DNA of 51,633 nucleotides, taken from a virus (Duplodnaviria > Caudoviricetes). Under the pieces are notes generated by a model, which searched no databases, had not been told where the DNA came from, and worked only from the letters and a program-made list of their open reading frames with translations. Made by a program: the position numbers and the translations under genes. Location of the stretch: the IMG/VR virus record IMGVR_UViG_3300030329_004387, positions 1 to 51,633 of that record; one strand, written 5' to 3'. This document shows, piece after piece, positions 8,022 through 32,391 of the stretch (position 1 is the stretch's first letter; every line of letters begins with the position of its first letter).

Positions 8022-8834
8022 ATGAATCCATATCAAGAAATAAGAAAAGTACCATTAGATTATAGTGGTATACAATCATCAGCTTATTCCGTTCAAAGAT
8101 TAGATGAAGAAAAAGGATGGAAAGAAGCGGGAGTGGTAGGAGCACATTATATGTTATTACCAAACCAAGAAGTAAAAGATATTGCAAGTGATATAGTTGA
8201 GTCAGCTTATATAGATTTTGAATTAGACAAAGAGTTCTTTAATGGTAAGAATTTTATGTTATCGTATAAAGCTGTAGATAGTATAGCAACTGTTGATCAT
8301 ACTGCAAAAGATGAAGATATAGATAAGTTAAATCTAGGTATTCAATTTTGGAATAGTTATGACGGTTCAAGATCATTTGGATTTTCATTAATGCTGTATA
8401 GATTAATATGTACTAATGGAATGATGAGTAAGCAATATCTACAGAACAATAGATTTAGACATGCTCCTGGTTCTGAAGATTGGAATACACAGTTAGAATC
8501 TATGGTGCATCTTATAAATGCTACTCAAGATGGAGATAATAATAGTGTAAATACTATGATTAATGGTATTAAAGAGCTAAATGATTATAGAGTTACATCA
8601 AAGAATTTAGGCAATATTAGGCACAATTTCCTTAAAGATATACCAACAGGTGTATGGGGTGAAATAACTGATAAATTCCTAGATCCTAATGGCGAATACT
8701 ACTCAGATACTAATGGTTGGGGATTACTTAATTCTGCTACAGATATATTGTGGCATAAGAAGAAACCAACACTTGCATCATATAATCAAAATGCTGTTAT
8801 AACAGATGGTTTAATTAACGCAATATGTGCTTAA
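8022..8834 (+). CDS. DUF932/DUF945-family protein
   Basis: NSYDGS...YRLICTNGM motif; W.L.N..T near the C-terminus. Confidence 0.85.
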   Translation: MNPYQEIRKVPLDYSGIQSSAYSVQRLDEEKGWKEAGVVGAHYMLLPNQEVKDIASDIVESAYIDFELDKEFFNGKNFMLSYKAVDSIATVDHTAKDEDIDKLNLGIQFWNSYDGSRSFGFSLMLYRLICTNGMMSKQYLQNNRFRHAPGSEDWNTQLESMVHLINATQDGDNNSVNTMINGIKELNDYRVTSKNLGNIRHNFLKDIPTGVWGEITDKFLDPNGEYYSDTNGWGLLNSATDILWHKKKPTLASYNQNAVITDGLINAICA

Positions 8835-8857
8835 TTAGAAGCGGATGATACGTCGGA

Positions 8858-9014
8858 AAATTAAGAGAGCCAATAACTGGTCCTGTAAGAATGTGGACTC
8901 ATTCATCGCGTTGAATGTAGGGTTCGAATCCCTTGTCTTACATCTTGTATGGGTTTTATCCCTACTAACACATCTAGCGGACAAGAAAAGGAATATGTGA
9001 GGCTCTCTTAATTT
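8858..9014 (+). ncRNA. Structured RNA containing a tRNA-like domain
   Basis: Perfect 14-bp closing stem 8858-8871/9001-9014; acceptor-like stem 8884-8890/8936-8942; T-arm AGGG-TTCGAAT-CCCT 8919-8933. Confidence 0.7.
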
Positions 9015-9042
9015 AATAAATAATAATATTAGGAGAATAAAA

Positions 9043-9132
9043 ATGGCTAAATTACCTAAAGAACTAAAGATATTTCGAAAAATAGTTAGAAAAGTAAACA
9101 GATTGATTTGGGGAAAGAAAAAGAGAAAATGA
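9043..9132 (+). CDS. Basic microprotein (29 aa), not in ORF track
   Basis: AGGAG SD; MAKLPKELKIFRKIVRKVNRLIWGKKKRK; ATGA overlap with the next gene. Confidence 0.6.
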   Translation: MAKLPKELKIFRKIVRKVNRLIWGKKKRK

Positions 9133-9221
9133 AAATTGGAATTTGTATGAATTGTAAGCACCCTATGGCATTTGGAGAATGTAATAATAAATGTCCTAAT
9201 TGCAATTTTGACTATGGTTGA
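9129..9221 (+). CDS. Cys-rich zinc-finger microprotein; TGA at 9219 may be recoded (extends to 9350)
   Basis: MKIGICMNCKHPMAFGECNNKCPNCNFDYG then TGA; frame stays open to TAG 9348-9350. Confidence 0.7.
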   Translation: MKIGICMNCKHPMAFGECNNKCPNCNFDYG

Positions 9222-9261
9222 GAAATAGAAGTATCTCGTGAAGATATAAAGGAGAGAAAAA

Positions 9262-9618
9262 ATGACAAGAAAAAAGATGGGAACATTGATAAAAAAGATA
9301 TTCCTGAAAATTCAAGAAACAAGAGAGTCTGGGCAGAAAGAATACGCTAGAGATATAGATAATGCTTTTGCTAATTTTGAAAGAATTGGTAAAAATTTAA
9401 ATATAACTAGAGAAAAAGTATTGCTAGTATATCTGTTAAAACATATTGACGGTATTTGTTCATATGTTGAAGGACATGAAAGTCAGAGAGAAGATGTAAG
9501 AGGAAGATTAACTGATGCTATAGTATATCTTTGTTTATTATGGGGGATGTGTGATGAACCTATATATCCTGGAAAGTCTAAACATTACTATAGAAGGTTA
9601 AAAAATGAGATTAACTGA
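9262..9618 (+). CDS. All-alpha nucleotide-modification-associated / NTP pyrophosphatase-like protein (Nmad1/DUF1599-like)
   Basis: GQKEYA...FANFE...LLKH...E...GRLTDAIVYLCLL pattern. Confidence 0.6.
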   Translation: MTRKKMGTLIKKIFLKIQETRESGQKEYARDIDNAFANFERIGKNLNITREKVLLVYLLKHIDGICSYVEGHESQREDVRGRLTDAIVYLCLLWGMCDEPIYPGKSKHYYRRLKNEIN

Positions 9619-10917: not shown

Positions 10918-13900
10918 TTAAAAATTAGCTAAACTTAATAAAGCTCTATCTCTAGTTCTTCTACCTCTTCCTCTATCTCTTCCTCTTCTTCTTCTTCTTC
11001 TTTTTGATCTAGGATCTTCTACTTTTGTCTCAGGTAATATATTTATACCTTCAGCAATACCTGGTGATTCTTCATCTCCATATATAAGACCCATTCCTTT
11101 ATCTACTGTAGCTTTTCTCCAATTAGTAATCCATTTAGGCTTATACATACCAGTTTCAATTCTAAAGGCTTTATCACTTTGCCCTTTAGCTATTGCAGGA
11201 ATAGTTTTCCAAGCAGTTCTAGCTCCTTGTATATTAAATATTCTTGCTACTTGATACCACCATTGCGGATCATCGGGATCATAATTTAAATTTCTATGTT
11301 CTTCATATTCTTCACCAGTCAAATCCATAAAATCAGTTAATTCAGCAATAGTTAATAAATCGCTGACAAAAGGTCCTAAATTACCTGTTATAGGGTTTTT
11401 TCCATAATAAGCTGAATAATGCTTAATTTGAGCTTTTTCATCTCCATCATGATTCCAATTATTTACATAATCAAGTAATTTTTTAGCTTCTTCTATTATC
11501 GGATTATCTATTAAACCACTAGGTGAACTTCTATCAGCTAAAGACATAGTCCCATCTTTTAAATATTTATCTTCATCAAATGGAGTATAGCCAAATGCAG
11601 ATGCCATTCCACCTATATCATAATCACTTACTAAAGCTACTAATGCAGGCATCAATGAATATAAAGACATTAATCTCATGCCTTGTTGAATTGCAGGATT
11701 AATAATCATCTTTTTACCTTTTTGATTTAAGGCTCTATTTCCCATTGCTAATGGATCTTCAACAGTAAATTTAAAACCTTTTACATCTCTAGCCATATCT
11801 CTTAATATATTGTATTGTAAATCAAAAAATGCAAATTTAAAATGTTGGAATTGTCCAATAACTTGACCTGCTCCCATTCCAGTGCCTCTTTGAAGTACCT
11901 TAGCTTTCGCCCAGTTATCATAATCAAAGTGAAGAGTTTTAACCATTTCAAATGCTTGATTACCTGATATTTTTTCTATATAATCCCAAAGCTGTTCCAC
12001 TGTAGGCTCTTTGCCATTTCTTTCAAAAAGTTGTTTTCTATGAAATTCTAATCTATTAGATTCTGCTGTAAATGAATGAGCAAATTGCATTTTAAATGTT
12101 TTAAGTCTATTTGCATTTTCAGCCCATTGTTGAGAACCAACTTTGCCTAGAATAGTATATTTAGAACTCCAATCAGCTCCTTTAGCCATACCTTCAGCTA
12201 TTTTCTTCAAGGTATTACCTTTTTCTAAAACAAGTTTACCTTGTCCATCTACTCCAAATCCTGGTGGAATTAACATAACATCTAATGAGCCTCCTGTAGC
12301 AGCAGAAATACTTGCTCCTTCAGCTTTTTCTCCAATCATCATACCAAATCTTTTTAATTGCCTATTATACATCATTGAATTTGTTATTTCTGCACCTTCA
12401 TACATACGAGAAGTAGTAGTATAAAATTCTTCAGTAATTCTATAACCTCTTTTACCGAACATAACCCAATTTAACAAACCTTGTGTTCTATTTTTTATAC
12501 CACTTTTAAAACTAAAACCTAATTTTGAAATGTATTCAAATGAATTAATTATTCTAACAGCGTGATCTAAATTACCTGTTGGAGCACCATTATTCATTAA
12601 TGCACTATCTTTGATTTCAGTAAGCATATCTAATAAGTAAGTAGCATGTTCGGCTATTTTAACCTTGCCTTTACCGTGTTCATTTCTTCTTACAGCATCT
12701 ACTAAATGAGCTGCAACAGATGAAAAACTATGATTTATTCTAGATCTCATATTAAATGAAGCAACATCATGTACATATTTATTTAAATAATATATTGGAT
12801 CTAATGCTACCCAAGCATCTGTACTGCCCTTTTGCTTTAATCTATTGCTTATTGCTTCTACTGATAAACTATTTTCTATTTCTCTTTGAATATCTGATGC
12901 CTGTTTTCCTTTATAGCCAGGATTATTTCTATCTTTAGCAAATTGCACTAAATTAGACATCATATCAGTTAATTCTATTACATAATCTGGAGAATACTTA
13001 GTTATTGATTTTTCACCATTTGCTCTAACTCCTATTGCAGTTAAAGGATTTCCATCAGAATCCTTTTCTTGTAATACATAAGGTCTTTTTGTTCGAGTTT
13101 TTGGATCATATATATAAAAATCTTTTGGATTTGCTGCTGTTATAATGCCATTTTCATTTCTATATTGATTGCTAAGAGTACTTTTATCAATATTACTTTG
13201 TATTAAAAGAGACTCTATTTGCTGACTAATTGTTTCATAAGCTTTTATAAGAGTTTTTTTAGTAGGATCTGATTCAAGTAAACCTTCTATTGTTCTTCTT
13301 GCAGCAATAGAGCCATTTAATAAATCTTTCATACTATCCATTCTTAATATATCCCAAGCTTGTCTAACTTTATGCTCTGCTGGAGTTTCTGGTTGAGTTT
13401 TAAATGTAAGCAAATCATTGAATCTTCGCAACATTTGACCACCTACTGGATCTCCTTCACCTCCACTGCCTAAATGATCTTTAAGGGCATTTAAAGCCTT
13501 TAATTGCTCTTTTGAACCTGGCTTAGAAACTAATAATTCTCTTTCTAAATTTTGAAAATATTTATATTGTTCTTTAGAATAAGTTTTACCTGCCGCTATA
13601 TTTAATGGATGTGTTGGGTCTAAAAACATTTCAAACATACCATCAGTCATTTTTTTAATATGTTTTGCACCATCTTTAAGTAGTTTTTGATTATAACTAA
13701 CAGCTTCTCCTACTTGAGTAACAAAATCTTCTCCACCTTTAAATCCTTTTGCTAAAACTTTTGGTAGCTTAAAATAGGTCTCAAAATAGCCAGCTTGTTT
13801 ACCTAGTTTAGGTAGAAATTCCTTTTTTATAGCTTTTGAAAAAATTTCTATATCTTTAGGGTTAAGCCTTATTGTTGCAACATCAAATTCTGTTCTTGTA

Positions 13901-14070
13901 TACTTTTTCCAAAGCCATTGAAATGTTTCTCTATCTGTCCATCCCATTTCTTTTGCATAAGGATTTTTCATCCAATCTCGAACATTCTTATCTTTCATTA
14001 AAGTCTTAAAATTTTTTCTTTGCTCTTTGGAATCTATATTAGTTCCAGGCATACATGCGCCACCAGCCAT
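10918..14070 (-). CDS. Large internal virion (ejection) protein, Arg-rich C-terminus
   Basis: 1050 aa, last in the ejection cluster; GQFQHFKFAFF-type motif; RRRRRRGRDRGRGRR tail. Confidence 0.65.
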   Translation of the reverse strand: MAGGACMPGTNIDSKEQRKNFKTLMKDKNVRDWMKNPYAKEMGWTDRETFQWLWKKYTRTEFDVATIRLNPKDIEIFSKAIKKEFLPKLGKQAGYFETYFKLPKVLAKGFKGGEDFVTQVGEAVSYNQKLLKDGAKHIKKMTDGMFEMFLDPTHPLNIAAGKTYSKEQYKYFQNLERELLVSKPGSKEQLKALNALKDHLGSGGEGDPVGGQMLRRFNDLLTFKTQPETPAEHKVRQAWDILRMDSMKDLLNGSIAARRTIEGLLESDPTKKTLIKAYETISQQIESLLIQSNIDKSTLSNQYRNENGIITAANPKDFYIYDPKTRTKRPYVLQEKDSDGNPLTAIGVRANGEKSITKYSPDYVIELTDMMSNLVQFAKDRNNPGYKGKQASDIQREIENSLSVEAISNRLKQKGSTDAWVALDPIYYLNKYVHDVASFNMRSRINHSFSSVAAHLVDAVRRNEHGKGKVKIAEHATYLLDMLTEIKDSALMNNGAPTGNLDHAVRIINSFEYISKLGFSFKSGIKNRTQGLLNWVMFGKRGYRITEEFYTTTSRMYEGAEITNSMMYNRQLKRFGMMIGEKAEGASISAATGGSLDVMLIPPGFGVDGQGKLVLEKGNTLKKIAEGMAKGADWSSKYTILGKVGSQQWAENANRLKTFKMQFAHSFTAESNRLEFHRKQLFERNGKEPTVEQLWDYIEKISGNQAFEMVKTLHFDYDNWAKAKVLQRGTGMGAGQVIGQFQHFKFAFFDLQYNILRDMARDVKGFKFTVEDPLAMGNRALNQKGKKMIINPAIQQGMRLMSLYSLMPALVALVSDYDIGGMASAFGYTPFDEDKYLKDGTMSLADRSSPSGLIDNPIIEEAKKLLDYVNNWNHDGDEKAQIKHYSAYYGKNPITGNLGPFVSDLLTIAELTDFMDLTGEEYEEHRNLNYDPDDPQWWYQVARIFNIQGARTAWKTIPAIAKGQSDKAFRIETGMYKPKWITNWRKATVDKGMGLIYGDEESPGIAEGINILPETKVEDPRSKRRRRRRGRDRGRGRRTRDRALLSLANF

Positions 14071-14085
14071 ATTATCTCCTTTTTT

Positions 14086-17000
14086 TTACCAACATGATCT
14101 ATCAAGCTCTCTAAAATAATCCATTACATCACCTTTACCTGCTTCTGTACCATGATATATCTTACTTCTATAAGTATGAAGAGGCTCAAATATATTTCCT
14201 CCTTTAAATGAATAATCATTTATACTGCCCCACATCTTATTAACTACATTAGTAACAATATGTGCGGGAGGAGCTCCATCTAAACTTGTAACAGTCATAT
14301 CTACAGTCGTTCTATATAATTCAAAAGGATCTAAAAAATAAGACCCCATTAAATAATCTGATGCTATTTTTACAGCATCTTTATTCAAGTTGACATCTGT
14401 CATAAAACTAGGCATTTCTTTCATTGGAGGAAGTAATCTAAAATCACTCATTTCTCTAGTAATTCTTTCAAAAGCAAAAACATCACCTTTTAATGAAGGA
14501 TCATACTCTCTTATAAAAGCCTTTTTAAATCTATCATTTATTGTTTGATACCAATCTTTAGCAGTAGCAGAATCTATTACTCTACTTCCTTGACCATCCA
14601 TAGCTCTTTGTAGAAATTGAAATACTAATGACTCATTTCTTTTATTTGAATTAAATTTAGGAGTTAGACTTGAACTCTTTCTTAAATCATTTCCTACAAT
14701 ATGAAAAACATTCCTATCTGCTCTTGGAGTTAAAAGCATATGGATGAATTGTTGCTGCATTATAGTTCCATAAGGTCCCCCTAAATCTCTAGCCATATCA
14801 ATATAATCCATTAATATTTGCAAATCCTTTTCAGCAGCTAATCCAAATCTTGCCGCATCTTTAGGTCTAGATGGGTCAATTACTTGATTTTCTCTTGCAT
14901 TTAAAGCTTCATTAAATCGTTCTACTAATTCATTCAATCTAAATTCATCTACTTTATCTACTCTTCTATCTAATCTAGCAAAAGCATTATGCATAGCTCT
15001 TCTTACTCTAGCTGTATTATCAAAACCCATTTCCAATCTTTTAGGATTCTTAACTATAACATCTCCCGCTCTCCAAGTAACCTTTTCACCAGGCTTAAAA
15101 AGCATCATTTGTTCTGCTCTTTTTTTATCACCTTTACCTACTAGTCTAAAAATACCTATAGTATCATTTTTGTATACTCTAGGTTTTTTACTATCATATT
15201 TTTCAGGTTTATGCATATGATATATAGTATTAGGGTCATTGACCTGTTTATTGAATTCTAAAATAATTGCATTATATTTATCGCCTTCTGATTTCCAATA
15301 TCTATAAACAGCAGTATCCTCTTTGCCTCTAGATACCAAGTCTTTTAAAACATCATTTACTTGGTCTAATTTATACTTAATAGTAGACACGGTTAATATT
15401 TTAGTTTGATCGTTTAAAATGCCATTAATAGCTTTATTTACATTATCAGGAGTAGCTTTTGTAATTCCTGCTAAAATTTGACCTAAACCATCATCTATAG
15501 AAGGTATACCATTTTTAAATATATTAGAATTTAATTGCTTTCTCAAGCTTGATAACGCTACTATTATAGGAAGTTCAGATCTAGCGGCTGTATTAGATGA
15601 ATTAAAATGATTATCTCCTAAGAAGTGTAATAATGGATCTACAGTACTTCTAAGTTCATTACCTACTAACTTGCCAGAGTCTTTATCCCAGCGATAGCCT
15701 GTCATTTTAATAGTATTTAAAATATTCTCATATCTATTAACCATTTCAAAAGCTGACATTTTTCTTGAAGTTCCATCTGTAAAATGATCCATCATTAAAT
15801 TTAAATTATGCAATTCGCCTAAAGGTTGTATAATACCCTGTCTAATTTTTTTATGTATTAACTGACCTTCAGTAGACATTGCATCAAAAGATACCTTTTT
15901 TCCTACTTTATCTTGTATCCCTTGATATTGCCATATTTCAAGAAAACCTAAATCTTTATTTTCCCATATAAGCTTATCTAATTGTATATCTCTAATATCT
16001 TGAGGTTTTTTATATATATCAATAGTAGCCTTTATTAATCTTTTCATATATTCTAAAGATTGAACTAATTCCATACCATCTTTAAGAGCTATTTTATATC
16101 GAACTCCTTTTATATCATTTACTTGAAAACCTAATTCTGGTCCTATTTGGAATCTATCAGTTCTATTTTTGCCACCTTTTTGCCATCCAGGAAGAAATAT
16201 ATCTCCTTCTCTAACAGAGTAATATTGAAGCATTGTAGATAATACTGAAACTTGTCGAATAAGCGAACCTCTTTTTGCATCTAAAAATTTTATAGTATCT
16301 GTATATTGCCCTTGATTTCTATCTAAACCTACTTCAATTAATGCTCTTTCAAATAAAGCATCTGTAGATTGCTGATATCCAGAAACATTATACATCTCTT
16401 TAATAACCCTGCCAGGCAATGTAAACATACTTGCAGATTTATCTAGATCAAAATCAGCATCTTGAGGATCAATAACATCTAATAAATTCATTTCACTAAC
16501 AGGTCCACGTCTTTTATCTAATAATTTTTCAACTCTTGTAATAACCCAATCGTTTATACCTGCTTTAGGTTGTCTTAAATCAACTTTACCTAAATGTATT
16601 TGAGAATACATATGCTTTTTATCTTTTCGTCCTGATGCTAATAAATTATATGCAGCATCTGGATTATTCTTACCATTTAAATGAGAATCTAATATATATT
16701 CAGTAAATTCATTTTTATATTCACTTCTTGTACCATTTAACATCATAGCCAAGTCACCTACTGTCGTAATACCTTCATCAATTTTAATCCATTCAATTAA
16801 TGATTTCATATCTGCTTCTAAAGCTTTTTCTAATCTATTTATAGCGTTAGCATTTTCTTTTATTGCTATCTTAGTGCTTAAATGTTGTCCAATAACTGTA
16901 AGAGTGCCATCGGGATTTAAGGAGACAGCAAAATCATTTCCTTCAATATCCTTTCCAAGACGTTCTAATTTATTTTCTTTTACAAAATCTTTAGTCACTT

Positions 17001-20000
17001 TAAATATGAAAGTCAAACTTTCATTTTTATTTGGCTGGAAGGCTACAGAGCCTGTACCAGAATCTCTTGTCATCATAAAATGATCAAGAGGAGTAGTCCA
17101 TTCTTTGCCAGACATACCTGAACCACCGAAACTATATTGAACACCTTCATATCTTACAGGCATACTTAAACCACCAGCAGGTTGCATAACAGAATAAGAA
17201 CCATTTTTTACAGCAGATGTTATTAAATTCCTATTTCCCATATACTCTGAAGTAACCATCTTATCTATATTAGGAGCCATAAATTCAAACAAAGGAAGTC
17301 CATCTACTGCTAATACAGCTTCAACTCCTGTAACCTTACCAATTTGGTCACCTGTTTCTTTTTGTCCCATTAATAGCTTGGAAGTAATTTCTTTATATGA
17401 AAAAGGATTACTTTCTGCAGCCATAGCTGCGAATCTTTGAACCATATCTGCTGTAGTATCATGAATTTTTGTTATACTATTTAAATCTTTTAATGATTGA
17501 TTTGAAAGTAAGTTTGCAAAGCCTGCTGACATTGTAGCATCATGTGTGCCACTAATAGATTTGATAAAAATAGATTCTCTATCTACTAAAAAGATGTTAT
17601 CCATTGTTTCTACAGCCATTCCACCTCTAGTTTGGATTTTTCTAGATACAGCGGGTCCCCATGGAGCATTTGTAAAGATTCCAACATCTCTTAAATTTTC
17701 AAAAGTCATCCAATCAGTGCCTCTCATAGGCTTGAATGAACCTATATCTACACCAGGACTTTCGATTAAGCCTGTTTGAGGATTATATCTTCTATGCTCT
17801 TTATGAGAACTTTCAAATCCTATAGCATCTACCATATATTCACCATTTCTATTTTGCATAATTTTGTCCATTACGGGATGCCAAGCATAAGCAGTTTTTC
17901 CTATATGAACCTCTATAGCACCTGTTTCATTATTAATTTTATGATGATATTCAATAGGCTTTATAGCTACATTAAATCCTATAATTTTTTCACCTATAAC
18001 ATCACCTTTATCATTAACTTTATCTCCCCATATAAACCATTCTCTTGTAGCTCCTTTAGCAACTAATTCAGAAATCATTTCAGGCATACTTAAAAACTTT
18101 GATCCATTCATAACAGATGCAGCTAATTTGTCATGATGCTTTAAAATGTTCTCGATAAATTCATTTCTTTCTCTTCTAGACATATTAGGATTATTTCTTT
18201 TTAATTGCTCTTTTAAAACTTCTCTGCTAATATTTGAACTATTAAAAAAGCCTTTTGAATCTCCCTTCTCATCAAAAAACTGCAAATCTCTACGTGGTTT
18301 AGTTTTTCCTTGAGAATCAAACATATGATTAGCAAATATATCATAGGCTTCCCACATCTTGCTATTTTTATCTAAAAATCTCGGTAAATACTCTCTTGTA
18401 AAATGTAAAGCTCTATCTGATAATGATAAGCCGCTTCTAGAATTATCTAATTTAATATACTTTAAAGCTTGCAACTGTTCAACAATAGTTGATTCCCCTT
18501 TAGCTACTTTCATTAAATCAAATCCTTTTGCATGCATTAATCTAGCAATTTGAACAAGATTGATTGCTTCAGAGTTCTTTAAATCAAGGGGAGTCATAAC
18601 TCCTTGTTTATTAAATTCTGCATTTGGAACATGTTTTTTGATATAATCTTGCACCATAAGGTTTAAATCATAATCTGATTTTTTAGGATTGTGACTTCTA
18701 AATAAAGCTACTAAATCTTTTCTTAGTTTTGATTGTGGATCTCTAAAATTCTCTAAAATTCTAGGTTTAACAATAGTTGGCATTAAAATAGATGTTTTCT
18801 CATCTAATTGAATAAACATAAATTGAGTAGAACCATCTTTACCTACACTTGTTTTTTGTAAATTTTGATATAAGTCAATTAATTCAGCATCTCCAGTTTT
18901 CAATAATTCTTTAGAATTTATATCTACAAAAGCACCATCTGCTAATTTTTGTTCTAATTCCAAACGAGCTTCAGGAGTCATTTTAGAAGTAAATCCTTTA
19001 CCAGTACCATATCTTCCACCTAATAATATCATAGTACCCATATCGGTATTTAATCCTAATGTTTCGGCTAATAAATTCAAACCCCTATTCCAATTAGATG
19101 TAGTAGTATTGTCGATTGTTAATCTTCCGTTTTCATAAATACCTATAGGCATTTTTTTCGATGCCAAGGCTGCTTGTACAACATGATAAGTATCTAAAAC
19201 AAAATCTTCATATGTACCAGGAAGTTTTTTATCTTTAATTTGAGATTTTAATATAGTATCAATTTTTACTTTTTGAGCTTTAATTATAGGCTCTATTACA
19301 ACATCTACATAATCTTTAACAGTAAAGGTGCCATCTATTACTTTTTGAAGTCCTTTTTCTATAACTGCATATTCTCTAGTGCCTATAGGAGGATTTTTAA
19401 TCCCAAAACTATCTAAAATTTTTCTAGGATTATAAATAAGATTGTCAATAAAATCAGTTGTTAAATTCCATTTTGTTTCATACTGCTGTTTACTTATACT
19501 AGTATTTCCTGAGTGAGGCCTATTGCTTCTATCAACTAAAGATAAACTATTTACTTGATTTTGTATATAATTATCTACATCTAGAATACTATCTATTCTT
19601 AAAGTTTCATTTCTTTCAGACATGGCTTCTATAACATACTCTTGCATTTGTTTTCGCCAATTTTTAATTGATTCAGGAGTTATTCCTTTATTTGTAAACA
19701 TTAAATTTGTTAATTCACTAAGCTTTTGAGAGCTATCTATAAAAGAACGTAAACCTATATGATCTCTATTTTGTACTAATAAAGTAAAAATTTGGTCTAA
19801 GTTAGCAGCATCTCTTGCAAGTTTAACCATTTCATTTTCCAAAGTTTCATTTATAACTTTACCTTCATTGATAGCTGCTTCGTTCTGTTTATCAACTAAT
19901 GCTCTTATTTCTGCAACAGATACACCTAATTCTTGAGCTTTTCCATGCAAATCAATTAAATCAACATGAGCAATTCTATCAGCTCTATTAATCATTTCAG

Positions 20001-23000
20001 AAACTTCTTGAATAAAATCATTACGCATTAGAGGATCTATATTTACATCTAATTTTGCATCTACGAAATTTATAGCATTACCTTTCTTATTTAAAGCACT
20101 CCTTAATGGATTTTCTACTTTAGATTCATATTCATTAATCAGATTTTCTAATCTAGTATATTCAGAAGAGTTTTTAATAATGCTAGGATCAGACAATAAA
20201 GTATCTCTTAAAGCTTGAGCAGACCTAAGATTTAAAGCTCCATCTCTTTTGATGGCTACTAAACTATCTTTATGTAATGCCATGATAACAATCTGCTTTA
20301 ATGATGTTGATATATTAGGATTGCCTGTTAATTCTCTAACAAATCTTTGACTAACAAATTGTAAAAATGAATTAAATTCTTGAGGATTTGTTAAAACATT
20401 CCCTATATTTTTTGTTATTTCATCTTTTATAGCCGTTAATTCTCCTACATCTATTTCTTTTCTAGATACTTTCCCAGAACTATCTAAATTCAATAATTCT
20501 AATGTTCTATTTAATTGATTATAAAAAGCATTTAAATCTTTATCTTTTCCAGATAAATCAATTTCTTTTAATGATCCATCAGTAAGTTTTTCTATAATTC
20601 TAAATGATACATTTCCACCTAATTTATTCTTTAAAAATGAAAACAATAATTTAGCTTCTCTAGTACCACCTTCTGCACCTGTAAAACTAAAATAAGCCTG
20701 TTCATTTCTTCTATATCTATGAGCGCTTTGAATTGAATGCCATAAAGGCACTGCTGCTAGCATTTGGGGATCTAAAAATCCATCCTTATTATTCCAAGTA
20801 GGTATTTTTTGTCTCCAATTAGCTTCTTTCCCAGGACCTGAATTATAAATCATTTCATGTATATTTTCAGTATTTTTATTATATAAATCTAAAAATTCAG
20901 CTCTATTTCCTTCTGCAAGTATATCTTTCCCGCTATATTTTCTTCCATTAGTGCTATATTCGATAACTCCTGTATTTTTACCAGCATGCAACATACCTAT
21001 AAGCGTTTGAGCTGCATCATAATACGGCTTAGCTCCAGCATCTACATGTGTTTTTAGAGTGTGTAAAGCATCTCCTACACTTTCATGAATTACAAGTCTT
21101 CCATTTACTATTGAAGCATCATCAGCTAATCCTAATGTTTTTAATGATTTCCATATATGATCAACTAACATTTTTTCAGCTTCAGCTGCAATTTTTATTG
21201 TATTTCCCTGCACTTGATCTTCTAAATGAGAATAAGTATCCATAGTTAATTTTTGACCATTTGGCAATTGAAGATCTTTAAATCCTTGCACAAAAGCTAA
21301 GGCTTCTTCTTTTGTCATATCTGTAATTACTTTACCACTTTGTCCAACCCCAGCTAACTTTGATATTCTTTCAGCTAATAAATTTAATTCAAGTAAATCG
21401 CTAGCCTCTTTCTTTAATTCTGCAGCTTTTTCCGTATTACCAGCTTGATTTTCTTTTTGAATTTCTTTTTGAATTCTATCTATTTCATTTTTAATATGCA
21501 CATTCCAATTATCTAATTCAGGTTTATCTTTTTGTTTATTTGCAACTTGTAAAAAATCAGCTTCTTTAAGTTCTTGATTTTGTTTAGCAGAAATCATTTT
21601 CTCCCTTACTATATCAACAATCATTTTTACATCTACTGATCGATTAATAGCTTCATTATTCAATTTTTCCATTGCTTCAGATACTTCTAAATGAGCATAT
21701 CTATTATATAGCTCTAATCCATCCTTATTTTTTTGCAATTTTTCCATTGCTTTTAAAAACTTAGATATTTCATTACCTTCCATTTGAAAACCTGATTCAG
21801 CGTAAAATCTTTTTGTAGGAGTTCGGCCAAATGCATCAACTTCCTTCATACTTTCTATATCTCTAATCTTATTAACATCTTTAGTTCTATTGAAAATACT
21901 TTCACCTTCTTTTTTGCCTCCTTTAAAAACTACACCATCACCTTTAATTTGAAATCTTCCAAAATTCTTACCACCTTTCATATAAAGCATACCTATCCAA
22001 TGATCGGCTATCACTTTATCCATAGGATATTCATCTGTAAATAAGTATCCATTATCATAAGCATCTTTATATGCAGCATAATTCATAGCAAAAGAACCTG
22101 CAGAAGCACGTGTAAATGAACCTATTCCATCTCTTCTAATCTCTCCCATAATAGTTTTCATTAAACCAGGTGTATCACTTTTTACAACTTTAAGCATATC
22201 CTCTAATATCTTTCTATCCTTAACACTAGTCTTTGTTGTTTGGCTTAGTCCTGCCAACCAAGCTTTAGAATATCCTCTAACGCTTCCAAAAATTTCATCA
22301 GCCGTTTTTCCAGAACTAATAACAATAGAATTCATCATTCCTTTTAATTGTTCATTGCTATATGAAGCTGCAGATTTAAATCTAGTTTTAATTAATTTAG
22401 CAAGAGTTCCTATATCGGCAACCATACCGCTATGTCCAAATTGTACTTGTTTACCACCAGGAATATATCTAATAGGAGCTAATATAGCACCTGTTTTCAT
22501 TCCATGCATAGTTCTTTCATACCAATGCTGATATCCCCACTGATCTTCAGTTAAGCCATACATTTCAGCAGCCATATCTCCAGTCTCTCCTACCACAGTA
22601 TCCCAAACTCCAAGTAAGGCTGCTTCATACACAATATCGCCTATAAGTTGAGATGTTTTGGTATTCAAACCAGTTCTCATACTTATACTGTAAGCCAAAG
22701 AATGTCCAAAATGCTTGTTTAATGATTCAGCAGACTCTTGCATAACAGTATTAACAATTTTAGCTAATTTCTCGCTTCCTGGCTGTAATTTGGTTAATTT
22801 AGAAAGACTTTGAGTTACTTCTTCTGCCACTTGTTTATTAATATTTTGATTAGCTAATGGATTATGCACTAAAGATCTTCTAGCTGAAGCTAGTGGATTT
22901 AATATGCCTAAAGGACCTTTATTCCACCATTTTAAAGACTTAATCTCAGATTTAGTGCCTTTTTTAAGAAGTTCTCTGGTAGTTTTTATAGTCTCTCTTA

Positions 23001-23565
23001 CAGCTCCTTCTGAAATGGCCTCAAAACCTTCTTCTGCAAGTTTTTTAGTAGTTTGCTTAGTAGCAAGTTTTACACCTGCTCCCGCACCTTTAGATAACGC
23101 TCCTAAACCCTTTCCTACAGCACCAATACCTGTAAGAATACCTGCTCCAGTACCTAGAGCATATCCTATTCTACCAGCCCAAGACTCATCTTTCCAATCT
23201 TGAGAACCAAAATATTCAGCGCTAATATCAGGTCCTCCAGAAGCCTCAGAAGCAATATCTATAACAGTGGGAACCATAAAAGTCTCTCCAAATCCCCATA
23301 CAGCGTTACCTAAAAAATCTGTAAGAAAGTTGCTATCTGCCCAACCATAAGAAGCTGAACTTTTAGGCTTACCTGTAACCTCTTCTCCAGGCCCCATTTT
23401 TCTTCTTTGCCATTTTAATGGTTCGCCTGTAGCCCAATCTTGATTTAAAGAATCCCAGGTGGGACGCTCCTCCCCCTCTTCTATGTCCTCTTCTACTTCA
23501 TTTTCTAAAGCTCTTAAAGCATCTTGCTTTCTTTTCCAATCGTCATAATCTCTATAAACGCTCAT
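14086..23565 (-). CDS. Giant virion protein containing a two-barrel DNA-dependent RNA polymerase (crAss/phi14:2 gp66-like)
   Basis: RQP at 16567-16575, then DADFDLD at 16441-16461, matching the beta-prime R.P...NADFDGD arrangement; located in the ejection cluster. Confidence 0.8.
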   Translation of the reverse strand: MSVYRDYDDWKRKQDALRALENEVEEDIEEGEERPTWDSLNQDWATGEPLKWQRRKMGPGEEVTGKPKSSASYGWADSNFLTDFLGNAVWGFGETFMVPTVIDIASEASGGPDISAEYFGSQDWKDESWAGRIGYALGTGAGILTGIGAVGKGLGALSKGAGAGVKLATKQTTKKLAEEGFEAISEGAVRETIKTTRELLKKGTKSEIKSLKWWNKGPLGILNPLASARRSLVHNPLANQNINKQVAEEVTQSLSKLTKLQPGSEKLAKIVNTVMQESAESLNKHFGHSLAYSISMRTGLNTKTSQLIGDIVYEAALLGVWDTVVGETGDMAAEMYGLTEDQWGYQHWYERTMHGMKTGAILAPIRYIPGGKQVQFGHSGMVADIGTLAKLIKTRFKSAASYSNEQLKGMMNSIVISSGKTADEIFGSVRGYSKAWLAGLSQTTKTSVKDRKILEDMLKVVKSDTPGLMKTIMGEIRRDGIGSFTRASAGSFAMNYAAYKDAYDNGYLFTDEYPMDKVIADHWIGMLYMKGGKNFGRFQIKGDGVVFKGGKKEGESIFNRTKDVNKIRDIESMKEVDAFGRTPTKRFYAESGFQMEGNEISKFLKAMEKLQKNKDGLELYNRYAHLEVSEAMEKLNNEAINRSVDVKMIVDIVREKMISAKQNQELKEADFLQVANKQKDKPELDNWNVHIKNEIDRIQKEIQKENQAGNTEKAAELKKEASDLLELNLLAERISKLAGVGQSGKVITDMTKEEALAFVQGFKDLQLPNGQKLTMDTYSHLEDQVQGNTIKIAAEAEKMLVDHIWKSLKTLGLADDASIVNGRLVIHESVGDALHTLKTHVDAGAKPYYDAAQTLIGMLHAGKNTGVIEYSTNGRKYSGKDILAEGNRAEFLDLYNKNTENIHEMIYNSGPGKEANWRQKIPTWNNKDGFLDPQMLAAVPLWHSIQSAHRYRRNEQAYFSFTGAEGGTREAKLLFSFLKNKLGGNVSFRIIEKLTDGSLKEIDLSGKDKDLNAFYNQLNRTLELLNLDSSGKVSRKEIDVGELTAIKDEITKNIGNVLTNPQEFNSFLQFVSQRFVRELTGNPNISTSLKQIVIMALHKDSLVAIKRDGALNLRSAQALRDTLLSDPSIIKNSSEYTRLENLINEYESKVENPLRSALNKKGNAINFVDAKLDVNIDPLMRNDFIQEVSEMINRADRIAHVDLIDLHGKAQELGVSVAEIRALVDKQNEAAINEGKVINETLENEMVKLARDAANLDQIFTLLVQNRDHIGLRSFIDSSQKLSELTNLMFTNKGITPESIKNWRKQMQEYVIEAMSERNETLRIDSILDVDNYIQNQVNSLSLVDRSNRPHSGNTSISKQQYETKWNLTTDFIDNLIYNPRKILDSFGIKNPPIGTREYAVIEKGLQKVIDGTFTVKDYVDVVIEPIIKAQKVKIDTILKSQIKDKKLPGTYEDFVLDTYHVVQAALASKKMPIGIYENGRLTIDNTTTSNWNRGLNLLAETLGLNTDMGTMILLGGRYGTGKGFTSKMTPEARLELEQKLADGAFVDINSKELLKTGDAELIDLYQNLQKTSVGKDGSTQFMFIQLDEKTSILMPTIVKPRILENFRDPQSKLRKDLVALFRSHNPKKSDYDLNLMVQDYIKKHVPNAEFNKQGVMTPLDLKNSEAINLVQIARLMHAKGFDLMKVAKGESTIVEQLQALKYIKLDNSRSGLSLSDRALHFTREYLPRFLDKNSKMWEAYDIFANHMFDSQGKTKPRRDLQFFDEKGDSKGFFNSSNISREVLKEQLKRNNPNMSRRERNEFIENILKHHDKLAASVMNGSKFLSMPEMISELVAKGATREWFIWGDKVNDKGDVIGEKIIGFNVAIKPIEYHHKINNETGAIEVHIGKTAYAWHPVMDKIMQNRNGEYMVDAIGFESSHKEHRRYNPQTGLIESPGVDIGSFKPMRGTDWMTFENLRDVGIFTNAPWGPAVSRKIQTRGGMAVETMDNIFLVDRESIFIKSISGTHDATMSAGFANLLSNQSLKDLNSITKIHDTTADMVQRFAAMAAESNPFSYKEITSKLLMGQKETGDQIGKVTGVEAVLAVDGLPLFEFMAPNIDKMVTSEYMGNRNLITSAVKNGSYSVMQPAGGLSMPVRYEGVQYSFGGSGMSGKEWTTPLDHFMMTRDSGTGSVAFQPNKNESLTFIFKVTKDFVKENKLERLGKDIEGNDFAVSLNPDGTLTVIGQHLSTKIAIKENANAINRLEKALEADMKSLIEWIKIDEGITTVGDLAMMLNGTRSEYKNEFTEYILDSHLNGKNNPDAAYNLLASGRKDKKHMYSQIHLGKVDLRQPKAGINDWVITRVEKLLDKRRGPVSEMNLLDVIDPQDADFDLDKSASMFTLPGRVIKEMYNVSGYQQSTDALFERALIEVGLDRNQGQYTDTIKFLDAKRGSLIRQVSVLSTMLQYYSVREGDIFLPGWQKGGKNRTDRFQIGPELGFQVNDIKGVRYKIALKDGMELVQSLEYMKRLIKATIDIYKKPQDIRDIQLDKLIWENKDLGFLEIWQYQGIQDKVGKKVSFDAMSTEGQLIHKKIRQGIIQPLGELHNLNLMMDHFTDGTSRKMSAFEMVNRYENILNTIKMTGYRWDKDSGKLVGNELRSTVDPLLHFLGDNHFNSSNTAARSELPIIVALSSLRKQLNSNIFKNGIPSIDDGLGQILAGITKATPDNVNKAINGILNDQTKILTVSTIKYKLDQVNDVLKDLVSRGKEDTAVYRYWKSEGDKYNAIILEFNKQVNDPNTIYHMHKPEKYDSKKPRVYKNDTIGIFRLVGKGDKKRAEQMMLFKPGEKVTWRAGDVIVKNPKRLEMGFDNTARVRRAMHNAFARLDRRVDKVDEFRLNELVERFNEALNARENQVIDPSRPKDAARFGLAAEKDLQILMDYIDMARDLGGPYGTIMQQQFIHMLLTPRADRNVFHIVGNDLRKSSSLTPKFNSNKRNESLVFQFLQRAMDGQGSRVIDSATAKDWYQTINDRFKKAFIREYDPSLKGDVFAFERITREMSDFRLLPPMKEMPSFMTDVNLNKDAVKIASDYLMGSYFLDPFELYRTTVDMTVTSLDGAPPAHIVTNVVNKMWGSINDYSFKGGNIFEPLHTYRSKIYHGTEAGKGDVMDYFRELDRSCW

Positions 23566-27807: not shown

Positions 27808-28005
27808 TTAATCCTTTGTAGTTTTAACTTCAGTATAAAGGGATGTCCCTTCTACATTAGTTTTTTGAAAAAATTTACCACTCATGTGGTCTTTAATTAT
27901 TTGAGTCACATTTGGTCTCCGACTTTCAACTGTAGCTTTATTAGACCTAATACCAACTCTCTTTGCATTAACATGCAAATCTTTTCTTTCTTGTTTACTT
28001 CTCAT
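27808..28005 (-). CDS. Small virion-module protein
   Basis: GGAG SD; ATGA overlap with the upstream gene. Confidence 0.65.
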   Translation of the reverse strand: MRSKQERKDLHVNAKRVGIRSNKATVESRRPNVTQIIKDHMSGKFFQKTNVEGTSLYTEVKTTKD

Positions 28006-31000
28006 TTTATTATTCTCCCTCTAAATATTATTGAAATATCTCCTATAGACATATCTAAAGGAGCATTGCCATCATCATGAGGCAAACCACCCCCTGGTGA
28101 AGCTGTTGTTGTTTTTGACATTAATTTTAATTGTATCCATTTTCCTCTAGCTCCTGATAATTTAAGTTCATTTAAACCATCACCATTAGGCAACCAAATA
28201 CCATTATCTGAACCGCTATCTACGTCAACTAAATCATCCCAATATGTTGTTAGAGTTTCATTTGTTCTCCAATATAACCTCATATTATTAGCTTTACCAT
28301 TAGTGAGTGTTATATTTACTTTATAAAACTTTTTATTTTGAGCAATATTCCCTAAACTGATTTTACCTGTTTCTAAATGAACAGCATTAGATTGACAGTT
28401 AGCTTCAGAATTAGTAAATCCTAACGCATAATACTTTCCTGCTTGCTCAAAGAAAGAAAATCCATTCTTACCATTCACCACATTGGTATCAGGTTCAACA
28501 TTAAATGGAGATGGAGGTTCAACTCTTCCAACCCAAGATTGTGTTACAAAGCTATAAAAATAGACTTTTGTAGCACTTATCCATACATATAATATACTCC
28601 TATTTGCGTCATATCCAATAGCACAATTTTCAGGATCTACTCCTAATGATTGAACTCTTAAATCTTTTAAAGATTGTAATTGTTCCCCATCAAAGAAATA
28701 AACCCCTGCATTATTAATGAATGCAACGCCTTCACCTACCTTGCAAACTTGTTTTGCACTAGCTATTCCCATATGATCCATAGTAGCTTCTAAAAACTCA
28801 ATATCTCCTGCTACATTAACAATAACTAATTTTCTTTCAGTGAAAACAAATAATCTATCAGCTGATGTTACTAAATGAATAATCTTATCACCACCTAATT
28901 CTAAGTCAATAAATAAATTATCAGGAAATCCAGCAGCTTTACCAGAAGCTGACTTTAATATGAGAGAATCATTATAATATGTAGTAGCATCATCTTTAGT
29001 GCTATCAAATCCAATTATTTCTATTCTTCTACTAGTACTGGTTACATTTTCATTTGCTAATCCTGCACTATCACCATTAAGTTTTTGAACCGAAATTCTA
29101 TTATTTGAATAATTTCCAAATTTTCCTGCACCACCTGTGCAATCCTTACTAAGAAGAAGTCCATTTGCATTACCTGCAGTTGAAATACTAAAACCACCAC
29201 CATTCATCGTATCTCCATTAAAATACCAACAATTACCTTGGCTTCCATTATCATAAAATCCTTTTGTCATCTTGTTTTGAGCAGTCATTACATGAGTACC
29301 TCCAACATATTCACTAGCTGCGCCAGTACCATTAGCTGTTATTAACGTAACCTGCCTAGTAGTGCTATCTACTGTAAGACCACCACCATCAGTAGCCGTA
29401 ACATCAACATAATCCTCACTTCCAGCAGCTATTGCATCAGTTCTCTGTGTATTTATTGCTTCACGAACACGCTGCTCTCTTGTTTGTTGATCTACAGTTC
29501 CATCCAAACTAATACATATTCTACCAGATCCATCCACATGAGGCTTTCCATTTGTAGATGCAGCTAATGTAGTATTAACAACGAATGTTATACTTTTTCC
29601 TCTCACATCTTCCATTACAATTTCACCTTTTTCAGCACCTGCATTACCAGCACCAGCTACAATACTCCATGATGATAAGCCTCCTCCAGCTTCTGTGCCT
29701 CTTTTTCCAGAACTTCCGATACCAGTAATTTTAAAGTATCCATTATTTTCATCTTCAGCAAATCCTGATAAACTAATTATTTGACCAACTTCAAAACCCT
29801 GCTCCGACATATCACATCTTACTATGCCAGCTGGTGTTCTTTGATAGCCAGTAAAATAATAATTATAATCACCTAATGTAGTAGATGTAAAATCATCATG
29901 AAATAAAATATAATCATCGCTACCTCCATTATCTACAACTTGTACAGAGTATCTAGCACTACTGTAAGTTGCACTATTGTCCTTACCTAAAAATGCAATA
30001 GAGGCTTTATCTGCAGCAACATTTCCTATATAAGCTTGCCTTCCTACTACAGCTGCAGTATTCCAAAGAGCATTAATAGTTTCTACTCCATAAGGATAAC
30101 CTGATTCAAGTTCATATGTAGATATTACAGGAGGATCATCAAATACTGCTGAAACTAAATTTAATTCAGTTCCCCCTGATCCAGTTCCCCAAGGGGTAAA
30201 TTCAGCAGCTCCTGCCTTTTTAAAACCTTTCGAATAGTCATATTCTCCAATTAAATATTTACTACCAAGTCCATGTCCAGAACTATCTGTTTCTGTATAA
30301 TATAATTTGCCATAAAATGGATCATCTGATGAACTTTTCTTAACAACAACCTCATGCTGATAATTAACACCAGAATATATAGAATTTCCGTAAGTACTTC
30401 CGTATTCATAAGGTATAGATTCAATACCATTAGATATTCTAGTAGAATAAAATTTAAAATATCTTTGATCCCATCCAAAAGTAGCAGGTCTAGAAAAACT
30501 AAACTCTCTAAGTCTAACTGTCTCTTTTTCTCTCATATCTATATTATGATCAATTCTAGGTATAAAAATCCAATTTCTAGTATTAGAAGCAACATAATTT
30601 GCTCCCGTATGAGTAGCACTTTCCCAAGTAAGAACTATACGAGCAAATCCCTTGTCTGCTCCAGCTTCTGTAATCATAGCAGGTGTTATTACCCATTGTT
30701 TCATATTATCATCATTACTTGAACCATCATAATTATTTATATTTAAATCACCTTCTTCAATATCAGCAATAATAAAAATATTCTCTAAATGACTCATATC
30801 TGTCACATAAAGCTCTATATTTATAGATTGACCTTCCCAAGCAGGTACTCTTGACATATCTGAATCTGTTATATTTGCGTAATTACCATATCCTCCATTT
30901 TCAACAGTTCCTGCGTTTGTTGTTTCAAAATTGCCTACTTTAAAAACTAATCCAAGTAAATCGTTCTGTTGATCAGAGGCTACATCCGCTATAGCAGTGG

Positions 31001-32252: not shown

Positions 32253-32391
32253 TATCTTCCTCAATTTCTTTGGGAGAGGTGTATACGAGTGTCATTGATG
32301 TATCATTAACTATGTCAGTATGTGAAGGAGGTGATGAGAACGACCTCTCCCAAAAGTTTTTAGGTATTGTTATATAACCTACTAAAGTCAT
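32245..32391 (-). CDS. Hypothetical protein (48 aa), not in ORF track
   Basis: TAATG coupling to the upstream gene; overlaps the start of the next gene. Confidence 0.45.
   Translation of the reverse strand: MTLVGYITIPKNFWERSFSSPPSHTDIVNDTSMTLVYTSPKEIEEDNA

Follow-up and report, generated by a model that had tools for sequence, protein, structure and literature searches.

Does the TGA at 9219-9221 of the viral record IMGVR_UViG_3300030329_004387 end a gene, or is it decoded as an amino acid within one? The window, meaning the whole stretch of that record which was analysed, is 51.6 kb in length (51,633 nucleotides, nt), has a GC content of 32.7% and is about 91% complete. On its + strand, a small open reading frame (ORF) at 9129-9218 encodes a putative zinc ribbon of 30 residues with five cysteines (Cys), after which an in-frame TGA stands in the place of residue 31 and the frame continues for 42 codons up to a TAG at 9348-9350. 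The original prediction for this locus proposed that the corresponding UGA in the mRNA is read as selenocysteine (Sec). Comparison with homologous loci lends good support to a site-specific decoding of this UGA, and recoding of some kind is judged to be likely; Sec itself is unproven, as relatives display no alternation of Cys and Sec at the site, and although it is the best single mechanism for the decoding, it is a tentative choice held with less than even confidence.

The invariant UGA and its open frame

Homologous loci were gathered from viral and metagenome contigs through the 118-amino-acid (118-aa) gene that follows the ORF (67 loci) and by aligning the small protein itself; together with the window, the 32 loci used, among which L008 and L088 are one contig, reduce to 23 distinct DNA sequences. 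In all 23 of these, TGA comes straight after the last glycine of the zinc ribbon. Two controls indicate how stop codons are otherwise used in these genomes: the 118-aa gene ends in TAA in 24, in TGA in 22 and in TAG in 12 of its 58 distinct sequences, and TGA makes up 23% of the stops of ORFs of at least 100 aa in related loci. TAA or TAG in homologues, or a lack of conservation after the site, had been named beforehand as observations that would refute Sec; no homologue carries either codon and conservation after the site is present, leaving the idea unrefuted on this count.

A larger set of relatives is available at the protein level. An exhaustive profile search of 1.84 billion representative sequences, together with word-indexed searches of 5.8 billion clusters, led to 32 different protein relatives, of which 14 end at residue 30, 17 have tryptophan (W) at residue 31 and one has leucine; they include further lineages represented by proteins alone, which are called with W at this residue. 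The W is to be read as a TGA called under genetic code 4, because protein P0031 equals the read-through product of locus L085 except for that residue, because in P0001 the second W coincides with a TGA of L068, and because the cluster of P0009, the DNA of which was not found among viral contigs, has 42-aa members that stop exactly before the W. The leucine belongs to P0038. In this protein, which was recovered from one 682-nt contig only, the invariant C22 and G30 are missing as well, and it is probably an error-laden or decayed copy.

Elsewhere in the phage, TGA is not reassigned. The 58 window ORFs of at least 50 aa stop at TAA in 39 cases, TGA in 12 and TAG in 7; most of the TGA stops are ATGA overlaps, read-through would extend 10 of the 12 ORFs by 0-14 codons, and ORFs of up to 3159 codons contain no internal TGA. 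The ORF directly upstream of the zinc ribbon likewise terminates normally at a TGA, which precedes the candidate site by 87 nt. TGA had been described as a true stop in other genes of this phage, and since it is one in 12 of the 58 ORFs, the candidate decoding is specific to the site. ARAGORN called no tRNA or tmRNA in the window, and a phage-encoded tRNA-Sec or suppressor tRNA was discarded, as neither ARAGORN nor Rfam, RF01852 included, detected one in the record. The idea that the TGA overlaps a -35/-10 promoter was also rejected; the T before the TGA is not conserved in the alignment, as read by eye.

The 42 codons beyond the UGA (frame 0, 9222-9350) reach across the Shine-Dalgarno (SD) sequence of the next gene and through its first 29 codons, lying in the -1 frame of that gene; the frame is thus open past the TGA, as had been claimed. 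In none of 19 sequences is frame 0 interrupted by a stop between the TGA and the following ATG, whereas frames 1 and 2 have 0-6 and 1-3 stops, respectively. Shuffling gives such an open frame a chance of 0.05-0.44 per lineage, and these values cannot simply be multiplied, because the lineages share ancestry. The distances from the TGA to the next ATG are 34, 40, 43, 46, 49, 67 and 73 nt, all of which are 1 mod 3, and this holds before at least three different downstream genes; the proteins P0033-P0036 imply a further insertion of 21 nt. By our count there are about six independent length changes, all of them multiples of three, which would have a chance of (1/3)^6, about 0.001. Over the first ten residues of the extension, replacements are conservative and variation peaks at codon position 3 (entropy 0.87/0.82/1.11 for the three positions). 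That the extension overlaps so much of the next gene counts for nothing by itself, because the -1 frame of the 118-aa gene is open for at least 31 codons in 24 of 62 loci that have the gene and no zinc-ribbon ORF. Two other explanations for the continuing frame were tried and rejected: a +1 frameshift into the next gene, since 2-6 stops interrupt the +1 frame both in the window and in 7 of 18 other sequences tested, and a separate ORF starting after the TGA, for which an ATG is found in some lineages and is absent from the window and the L008 lineage.

The protein encoded before the UGA has its Cys at residues 6, 9, 18, 22 and 25, and the pattern C-x2-C-x8-C-x3-CPNC-x5-TGA is as originally described, with two CxxC knuckles (C6/C9 and C22/C25) in addition to C18. 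None of the five Cys varies, either among 11 or among 19 aligned homologues; the ORF is most variable at third codon positions (entropy 0.72/0.61/1.08), and its own frame has the largest synonymous share. Nothing significant was found for the ORF in Pfam and PHROGs. When read-through forms were compared with Pfam, weak zinc-ribbon matches of 9-13 bits were returned (cut-offs 25-29; E 0.1-1), and Foldseek against the PDB gave no match at E <=0.001, its weak top rows being zinc ribbons. Structure prediction with AlphaFold2 (AF2) for 19 read-through sequences resulted in a mean predicted local distance difference test score (pLDDT) of 71, with values of ~78 over the ribbon and ~58 over residues 31-40. 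A WhiB-like iron-sulfur protein was considered on account of the C22-x2-C25-x5-residue 31 spacing, which equals the WhiB-like C-x2-C-x5-C arrangement; this candidate was rejected, as seven read-through products gave no match to Pfam Whib at E <=10.

A hairpin downstream of the UGA

The UGA is followed by a conserved hairpin of 5-7 base pairs, located at 9231-9247 in the window and there consisting of the arms 9231-9236 and 9242-9247, with G-U as the outermost pair, and the loop CGUGA at 9237-9241. It starts 10-11 nt 3' of the UGA in every lineage (9-10 nt as given for the window), while the stem sequences differ between lineages; the 27 nt after the TGA align across the family without gaps except in L101, and between some lineages they are better conserved than the ORF. 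In an alignment of 20 sequences, 77% of cells pair, compared with 41-59% when the 3' partner is slid, and the 59% obtained at slide -2 is partly accounted for by one clade that pairs two columns out of register. The covariation score of 0.323 compares with 0.176 at most for slid partners and was reached by none of 500 shuffles. Changes on both sides are seen in four of seven pairs; pair 23-35, for example, is C-G in 10 sequences, U-A in 6 and U-G in 3.

Hairpins of such geometry follow about 1% of window positions, and of 18 window sites at which a TGA and a hairpin occur together, that at 9219 is the only one with more than 20 open codons on both sides. Run against the 436 kb that window and loci make up, a covariance model built for the UGA and hairpin recovered the 19 known sites, at 34-61 bits, and no further one; the next best match had 20.7 bits, and two weak matches that were inspected were neither of them at a TGA. 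The hairpin is therefore not a repeated regulatory site. It accompanies the ORF before at least three different downstream genes, and the possibility of a 5' element belonging to the 118-aa gene was rejected, as the hairpin is absent from loci that have this gene and lack the zinc-ribbon ORF.

The weak hairpin first pointed out at this locus is a different one, in which GAGA (9220-9223) pairs with TCTC (9234-9237), spanning 9220-9237. The pairing exists but does not covary: in 20 homologues, 75% of cells can pair, no compensatory change is seen and the scores are reached by 500 of 500 shuffles. It competes with the conserved hairpin for CUC, and the result for the GAGA/TCTC pairing counts as neither support nor refutation. 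An Rfam 'freshwater-2' match at 9189-9264 was discarded as not significant (18.1 bits against a gathering score of 49.9, E 2.6). Most of its score stems from the SD-AUG part, the motif itself also ending in an SD and AUG, and the match pairs the GAGA/UCUC stem.

How the UGA may be decoded

The rules for a bacterial selenocysteine insertion sequence (bSECIS) were taken from the legend of Fig. 2 in PMC13188914, according to which the apical loop has 3-9 nt and the upper stem 4-16 base pairs (bp), the first or second nucleotide of the loop is a G, with G or U as the usual next one, the apical loop lies 16-37 nt from the UGA and the minimum free energy (MFE) is -7.5 kcal/mol or lower. A UGA in a continuing frame is present throughout the family (TGA in 23/23; frame 0 open to and past the next start in 19/19), and loops of 3-6 nt on stems of 4-7 bp are within the permitted sizes in all 23 sequences. 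The loop has G and then G or U in 22 of 23, including CGUGA in the window, the exception being L093, in which a C-A mismatch falls in the usual stem. The distance from UGA to loop is 16-19 nt in 21 of 23, 15 in the window and 14 for the best contiguous hairpin of L093, by the counting used here. It is because the hairpin agrees with the bSECIS in loop size, stem size and the G-G/U of the loop that Sec is preferred; by this counting, the spacing would agree in 21 of the 23, with the window 1 nt short.

If this preference is correct, the TGA at 9219-9221 would be a programmed, site-specific recoding site at which the majority of ribosomes probably terminate and release the 30-residue zinc-ribbon protein, while a fraction would decode the UGA and stay in frame for 42 codons to the TAG at 9348-9350. 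The most likely decoder would be a selenocysteyl-tRNA brought by SelB of the host, so that Sec would be the residue inserted and the host would have to possess selABCD; SelB would be recruited by the 9231-9247 hairpin, which lies at about the bSECIS distance and has the G-then-G/U loop. As a matter of speculation, residue 31 could form a selenylsulfide with the fifth Cys, C18, or serve as a metal ligand.

What is established is the invariant TGA, the covarying hairpin, the open frame, the frame-preserving length changes and the absence of TGA reassignment elsewhere. The absence of both TGY and TGG from the site fits a need for two products in a fixed ratio and, taken from the sequences, would favour neither Sec nor a read-through independent of SelB. 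A more specific proposal, to which we give a little less credence than to Sec as such, is a selenoprotein family of the phage's own that combines a zinc ribbon with an obligatory Sec through a minimal SECIS and borrows the SelB of the host, and that is maybe a selenium- or SelB-sensing switch of early genes. As there is no Cys form and the read-through frame always crosses the ribosome-binding site of the next early gene, the site may therefore act as such a switch.

Several findings weigh against Sec. Nearly all selenoproteins have Cys homologues (PMC13188914), and none was found here: not one of the 32 protein relatives has Cys at residue 31, and not one of the 23 DNA sequences codes for it there. 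The alternation of Cys and TGA that was to be looked for in relatives was therefore not observed, and the notion that small proteins of this pattern end in CPNCG-x4-C, placing the UGA at a sixth Cys, was not borne out, as no Cys form exists among the relatives found. Residue 31 lies outside of any CxxU/UxxC redox motif, and four Cys suffice to complete the zinc ribbon. The MFE of the 45-nt segment is -7.5 kcal/mol or lower in 8 of 23 sequences and misses this value in 15, the window having -3.6; the hairpin by itself is also weak, its energy ranging from -0.8 to -8.2 kcal/mol over the family, with -2.3 for the window. Single-sequence folds are no better than shuffles (z -1.0 to +0.2), and RNAalifold predicts no consensus pair. 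Rfam models of SECIS and tRNA-Sec have no match in the window at the gathering score, none at E <=10 in 8780-9300 and none at E <=5 in eight loci. After the TGA, a crude synonymous/non-synonymous count does not single out frame 0 (0.081, as against 0.094 and 0.061), over a stretch that is largely also under stem constraint. The extension varies from 10 to 73 residues, with only 10 in one lineage, and beyond ~10-20 residues it is not homologous between lineages. Finally, Sec would require that the host, whichever it is, has selABCD.

Some information bearing on the host is available from related contigs. Relatives of the large terminase subunit (TerL) with 58-65% identity occur on contigs L102, L103 and L104, in metagenome-assembled genomes (MAGs) whose labels are discordant, two being archaeal (Poseidoniales and Methanosarcinales) and one bacterial (Dehalococcoidia). 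Of the three, the Dehalococcoidia-labelled MAG alone has a SelB above the cut-off (350 bits) as well as a tRNA-Sec near threshold. The other contigs of this MAG have 45-59% GC versus 36% for the phage contig, a difference of about 20 points, which suggests that the latter is mis-binned; given this GC mismatch, binning is therefore uninformative on the host. Every sequencing run in which DNA of the phage occurs is a marine or seawater metagenome. The GC content of Actinomarina is close to that of the phage. A 2026 preprint (10.64898/2026.04.03.716425) reports Sec machinery for all 84 complete Actinomarina genomes and for none of Pelagibacter. Abundant low-GC marine bacteria with Sec machinery do exist, which shows no more than that a Sec-using host of such a kind is possible.

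Among the alternatives to Sec, an ordinary stop comes first, although we regard it as somewhat unlikely. The product would be the 30-residue zinc ribbon only, the UGA would be fixed within an RNA motif, and the open frame and its phase would be fortuitous; the hairpin would then have a job such as that of a binding site for the zinc-ribbon protein, an RNA processing site or an mRNA stability element. A small nucleic-acid-binding fold that is co-inherited with a hairpin fits autoregulation, and the ribbon is complete at residue 25, with 14 of the 32 database entries, called under code 11, ending at residue 30. Beyond the TGA, frame 0 is not clearly preferred by the substitution counts, the -1 frame of the 118-aa gene is open by itself often enough to make the long overlap unremarkable, and the AF2 confidence over the extension is low (~58). 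An ordinary stop would, however, leave unexplained the ~6 independent length changes in multiples of three, the fact that frame 0 alone is stop-free in 19/19, and the use of TGA rather than TAA or TAG at a site whose neighbouring gene has a freely drifting stop.

The next alternative, which we likewise hold to be improbable, is a leaky UGA read without SelB by a near-cognate tRNA (e.g. that for Trp), with the hairpin at the mRNA entrance slowing termination and thereby setting a fixed ratio of short to long product. Such a read-through is supported just as well by the invariant TGA, by the stop-free frame and by length changes that are multiples of three, and a required short-to-long ratio predicts the lack of TGY or TGG forms in the 23 DNA and 32 protein sequences. 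The hairpin is weak for a SECIS, and no Sec machinery has to be assumed in the host. On the other hand, we know of no bacterial or phage read-through signal that requires a hairpin at such a distance with a G-G/U loop, which is what the SECIS model needs, and the loop pattern is present in 22/23; the tails are non-homologous between lineages, and a function of the long form is thus hard to see. Use of TGA as a sense codon throughout phage or host (NCBI code 4 or 25) is very improbable and is contradicted by the window, for although 17 relatives were called with W, some pipelines having chosen code 4 for AT-rich contigs, code 11 tiles the window with ORFs that are free of internal TGA up to the largest size, TGA ends ORFs mostly in ATGA overlaps with short extensions, and no suppressor tRNA was found.

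Genome context and known systems

The ORF belongs to the + strand of the window, which carries an early or replication module with Erf, a single-stranded DNA-binding (SSB)-like protein, a DnaB-like helicase, DUF932 and a RusA-like resolvase; the structural genes, namely the small and large terminase subunits, portal and head protein, are on the - strand. No integrase was found. The window has no DNA match in the phage collection and its TerL has an identity of 26% or less to cultured phages, and by these comparisons the phage is without a close cultured relative. Three giant ORFs on the - strand, at 14086-23565 (3159 codons), 28002-32264 (1420) and 10918-14070 (1050), together take up about one third of the genome; none has a Pfam match, and the 1420- and 1050-codon ORFs are also without a PHROG match.

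Directly upstream of the zinc ribbon, a basic ORF of 29 aa (9043-9132, +) ends in a TGA at 9130-9132 that overlaps the zinc-ribbon ATG as ATGA, and through this overlap the two are predicted to be translationally coupled; its C-terminus, RL(I/V)WG..KKRK, recurs in relatives. Downstream, the SD AAGGAGAG at 9249-9256 (+) precedes the ATG at 9262-9264 (+), which lies in frame +1 relative to the zinc-ribbon ORF and begins the 118-aa gene (9262-9618, +), a member of the function-unknown family phrog_6802. This gene is present in 67 viral loci, only 2 of which have the small zinc-ribbon ORF upstream. In 21 of the 67 (L002-L033 and L039), another Cys-rich ORF is found ~200-450 nt upstream of the gene; it has 73-90 codons between stops and two CxxC pairs, ends in TAA or TAG, and looks like another small zinc protein near the same genome position. 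Contigs of the sequencing runs X2, X3 and X4 join across 9008/9337 or 9009/9605, and some related phages in the same waters are therefore without the cluster of small ORFs, or also without the 118-aa gene, in agreement with the patchy presence of the small ORF among loci. Contigs of four sequencing runs, two of which are possibly the source of the record, have no listed difference at 9106-9386.

Two further elements occur in this part of the genome. A conserved GC-rich block of ~40 nt, which begins GCGGGTAGG and ends GGGATATAAA, precedes the first gene of the cluster in several lineages, being found at ~1150-1190 in L082 and just upstream of the 118-aa gene in L034 and L037; it may be a promoter or structured leader. 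The tRNA-like domain noted ~190 nt upstream of the gene is indeed present, at 8884-8942 in a 208-nt intergenic gap, where a 7-bp inverted repeat (8884-8890/8936-8942) encloses a T-arm look-alike at 8919-8933 (AGGG, TTCGAAT, CCCT). ARAGORN found nothing in it, and Rfam returned only a 13-nt match to the T-loop of tmRNA, at 6 bits; one contig of run X4 has several small insertions within the piece. A link to the zinc-ribbon ORF was rejected, as among the loci the T-loop pattern occurs only in the lineage of the window, i.e. in the window and the near-identical L072.

A search of the literature on phage selenoproteins, covering listings and abstracts, found none, only papers on eukaryotic viruses and general reviews; supplementary lists of predicted marine selenoprotein families could bear on the novelty. 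The words phage, virus and viral are absent from a 2026 review of prokaryotic selenoproteomes (PMC13188914), and in a study of an ocean data set, the families examined, except for three metalloprotein families, have few or no viral sequences (PMC9402790). If Sec is inserted, no phage gene would have been shown before this one to draw on the selenocysteine machinery of its host; the family would also be one of selenoproteins that lack any Cys counterpart, and the hairpin a minimal SECIS occurring naturally in AU-rich RNA. If decoding is independent of SelB, it would represent a rare programmed read-through of a stop codon in a double-stranded DNA phage, with a defined RNA signal. The entire unit of ORF, UGA and hairpin has ~130 nt.

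With respect to the protein, the ORF resembles the Pfam families Zn_ribbon_3, UPF0547, Zn_Ribbon_1 and A2L_zn_ribbon in having two CxxC knuckles, the second of which is CPxCG, and a weak likeness in Pfam and Foldseek extends to the zinc ribbons of archaeal ribosomal proteins, RNA polymerase subunits and Nop10. It differs from the Pfam families in its invariant fifth Cys (C18), and all matches are far under the cut-offs; to our knowledge, no member of the four families has a recoded stop. In zinc ribbons of this kind, the two CxxC knuckles are about 12-15 residues apart.

With respect to decoding, the closest comparison is to bacterial selenoprotein genes, of which E. coli fdhF is the textbook case. 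Like these, the phage site has an in-frame UGA and a continuing frame, and like a bacterial SECIS, its hairpin is a small stem-loop just 3' of the UGA with a loop of 3-5 nt that is opened by G and then G/U and begins 15-19 nt after the UGA; the gap of 10-11 nt between UGA and stem would match that of the minimal E. coli fdhF element. Unlike bacterial selenoprotein genes, the site is in a phage, has no Cys homologue and is not part of a known redox motif, and beyond the hairpin its tail is variable and runs into the next gene. The stem also differs from that of a bacterial SECIS in being short and AU-rich, under the stability cut-off in 15 of 23 sequences including the window, and without an Rfam match.

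Viruses offer two other systems for comparison. In the RNA phage Qbeta, read-through of the UGA of the coat gene yields the A1 protein, the extension of which is long, conserved and functional. The likeness lies in a UGA of a phage gene that would be kept as a leaky stop, with a short and a long product both possible; the differences are that Qbeta is an RNA phage and that the extension of the ORF described here is short or non-homologous between lineages, and we know of no requirement for a downstream hairpin in Qbeta read-through. The glutathione peroxidase homologues of poxviruses are viral selenoproteins that represent captured host enzymes and rely on a eukaryotic SECIS in the 3' untranslated region. 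The phage candidate would share with the selenoproteins of eukaryotic viruses the dependence of a virus gene on the Sec machinery of the host; unlike the poxvirus case, it is an ORF of 30 codons with an element of bacterial type and no cellular homologue.

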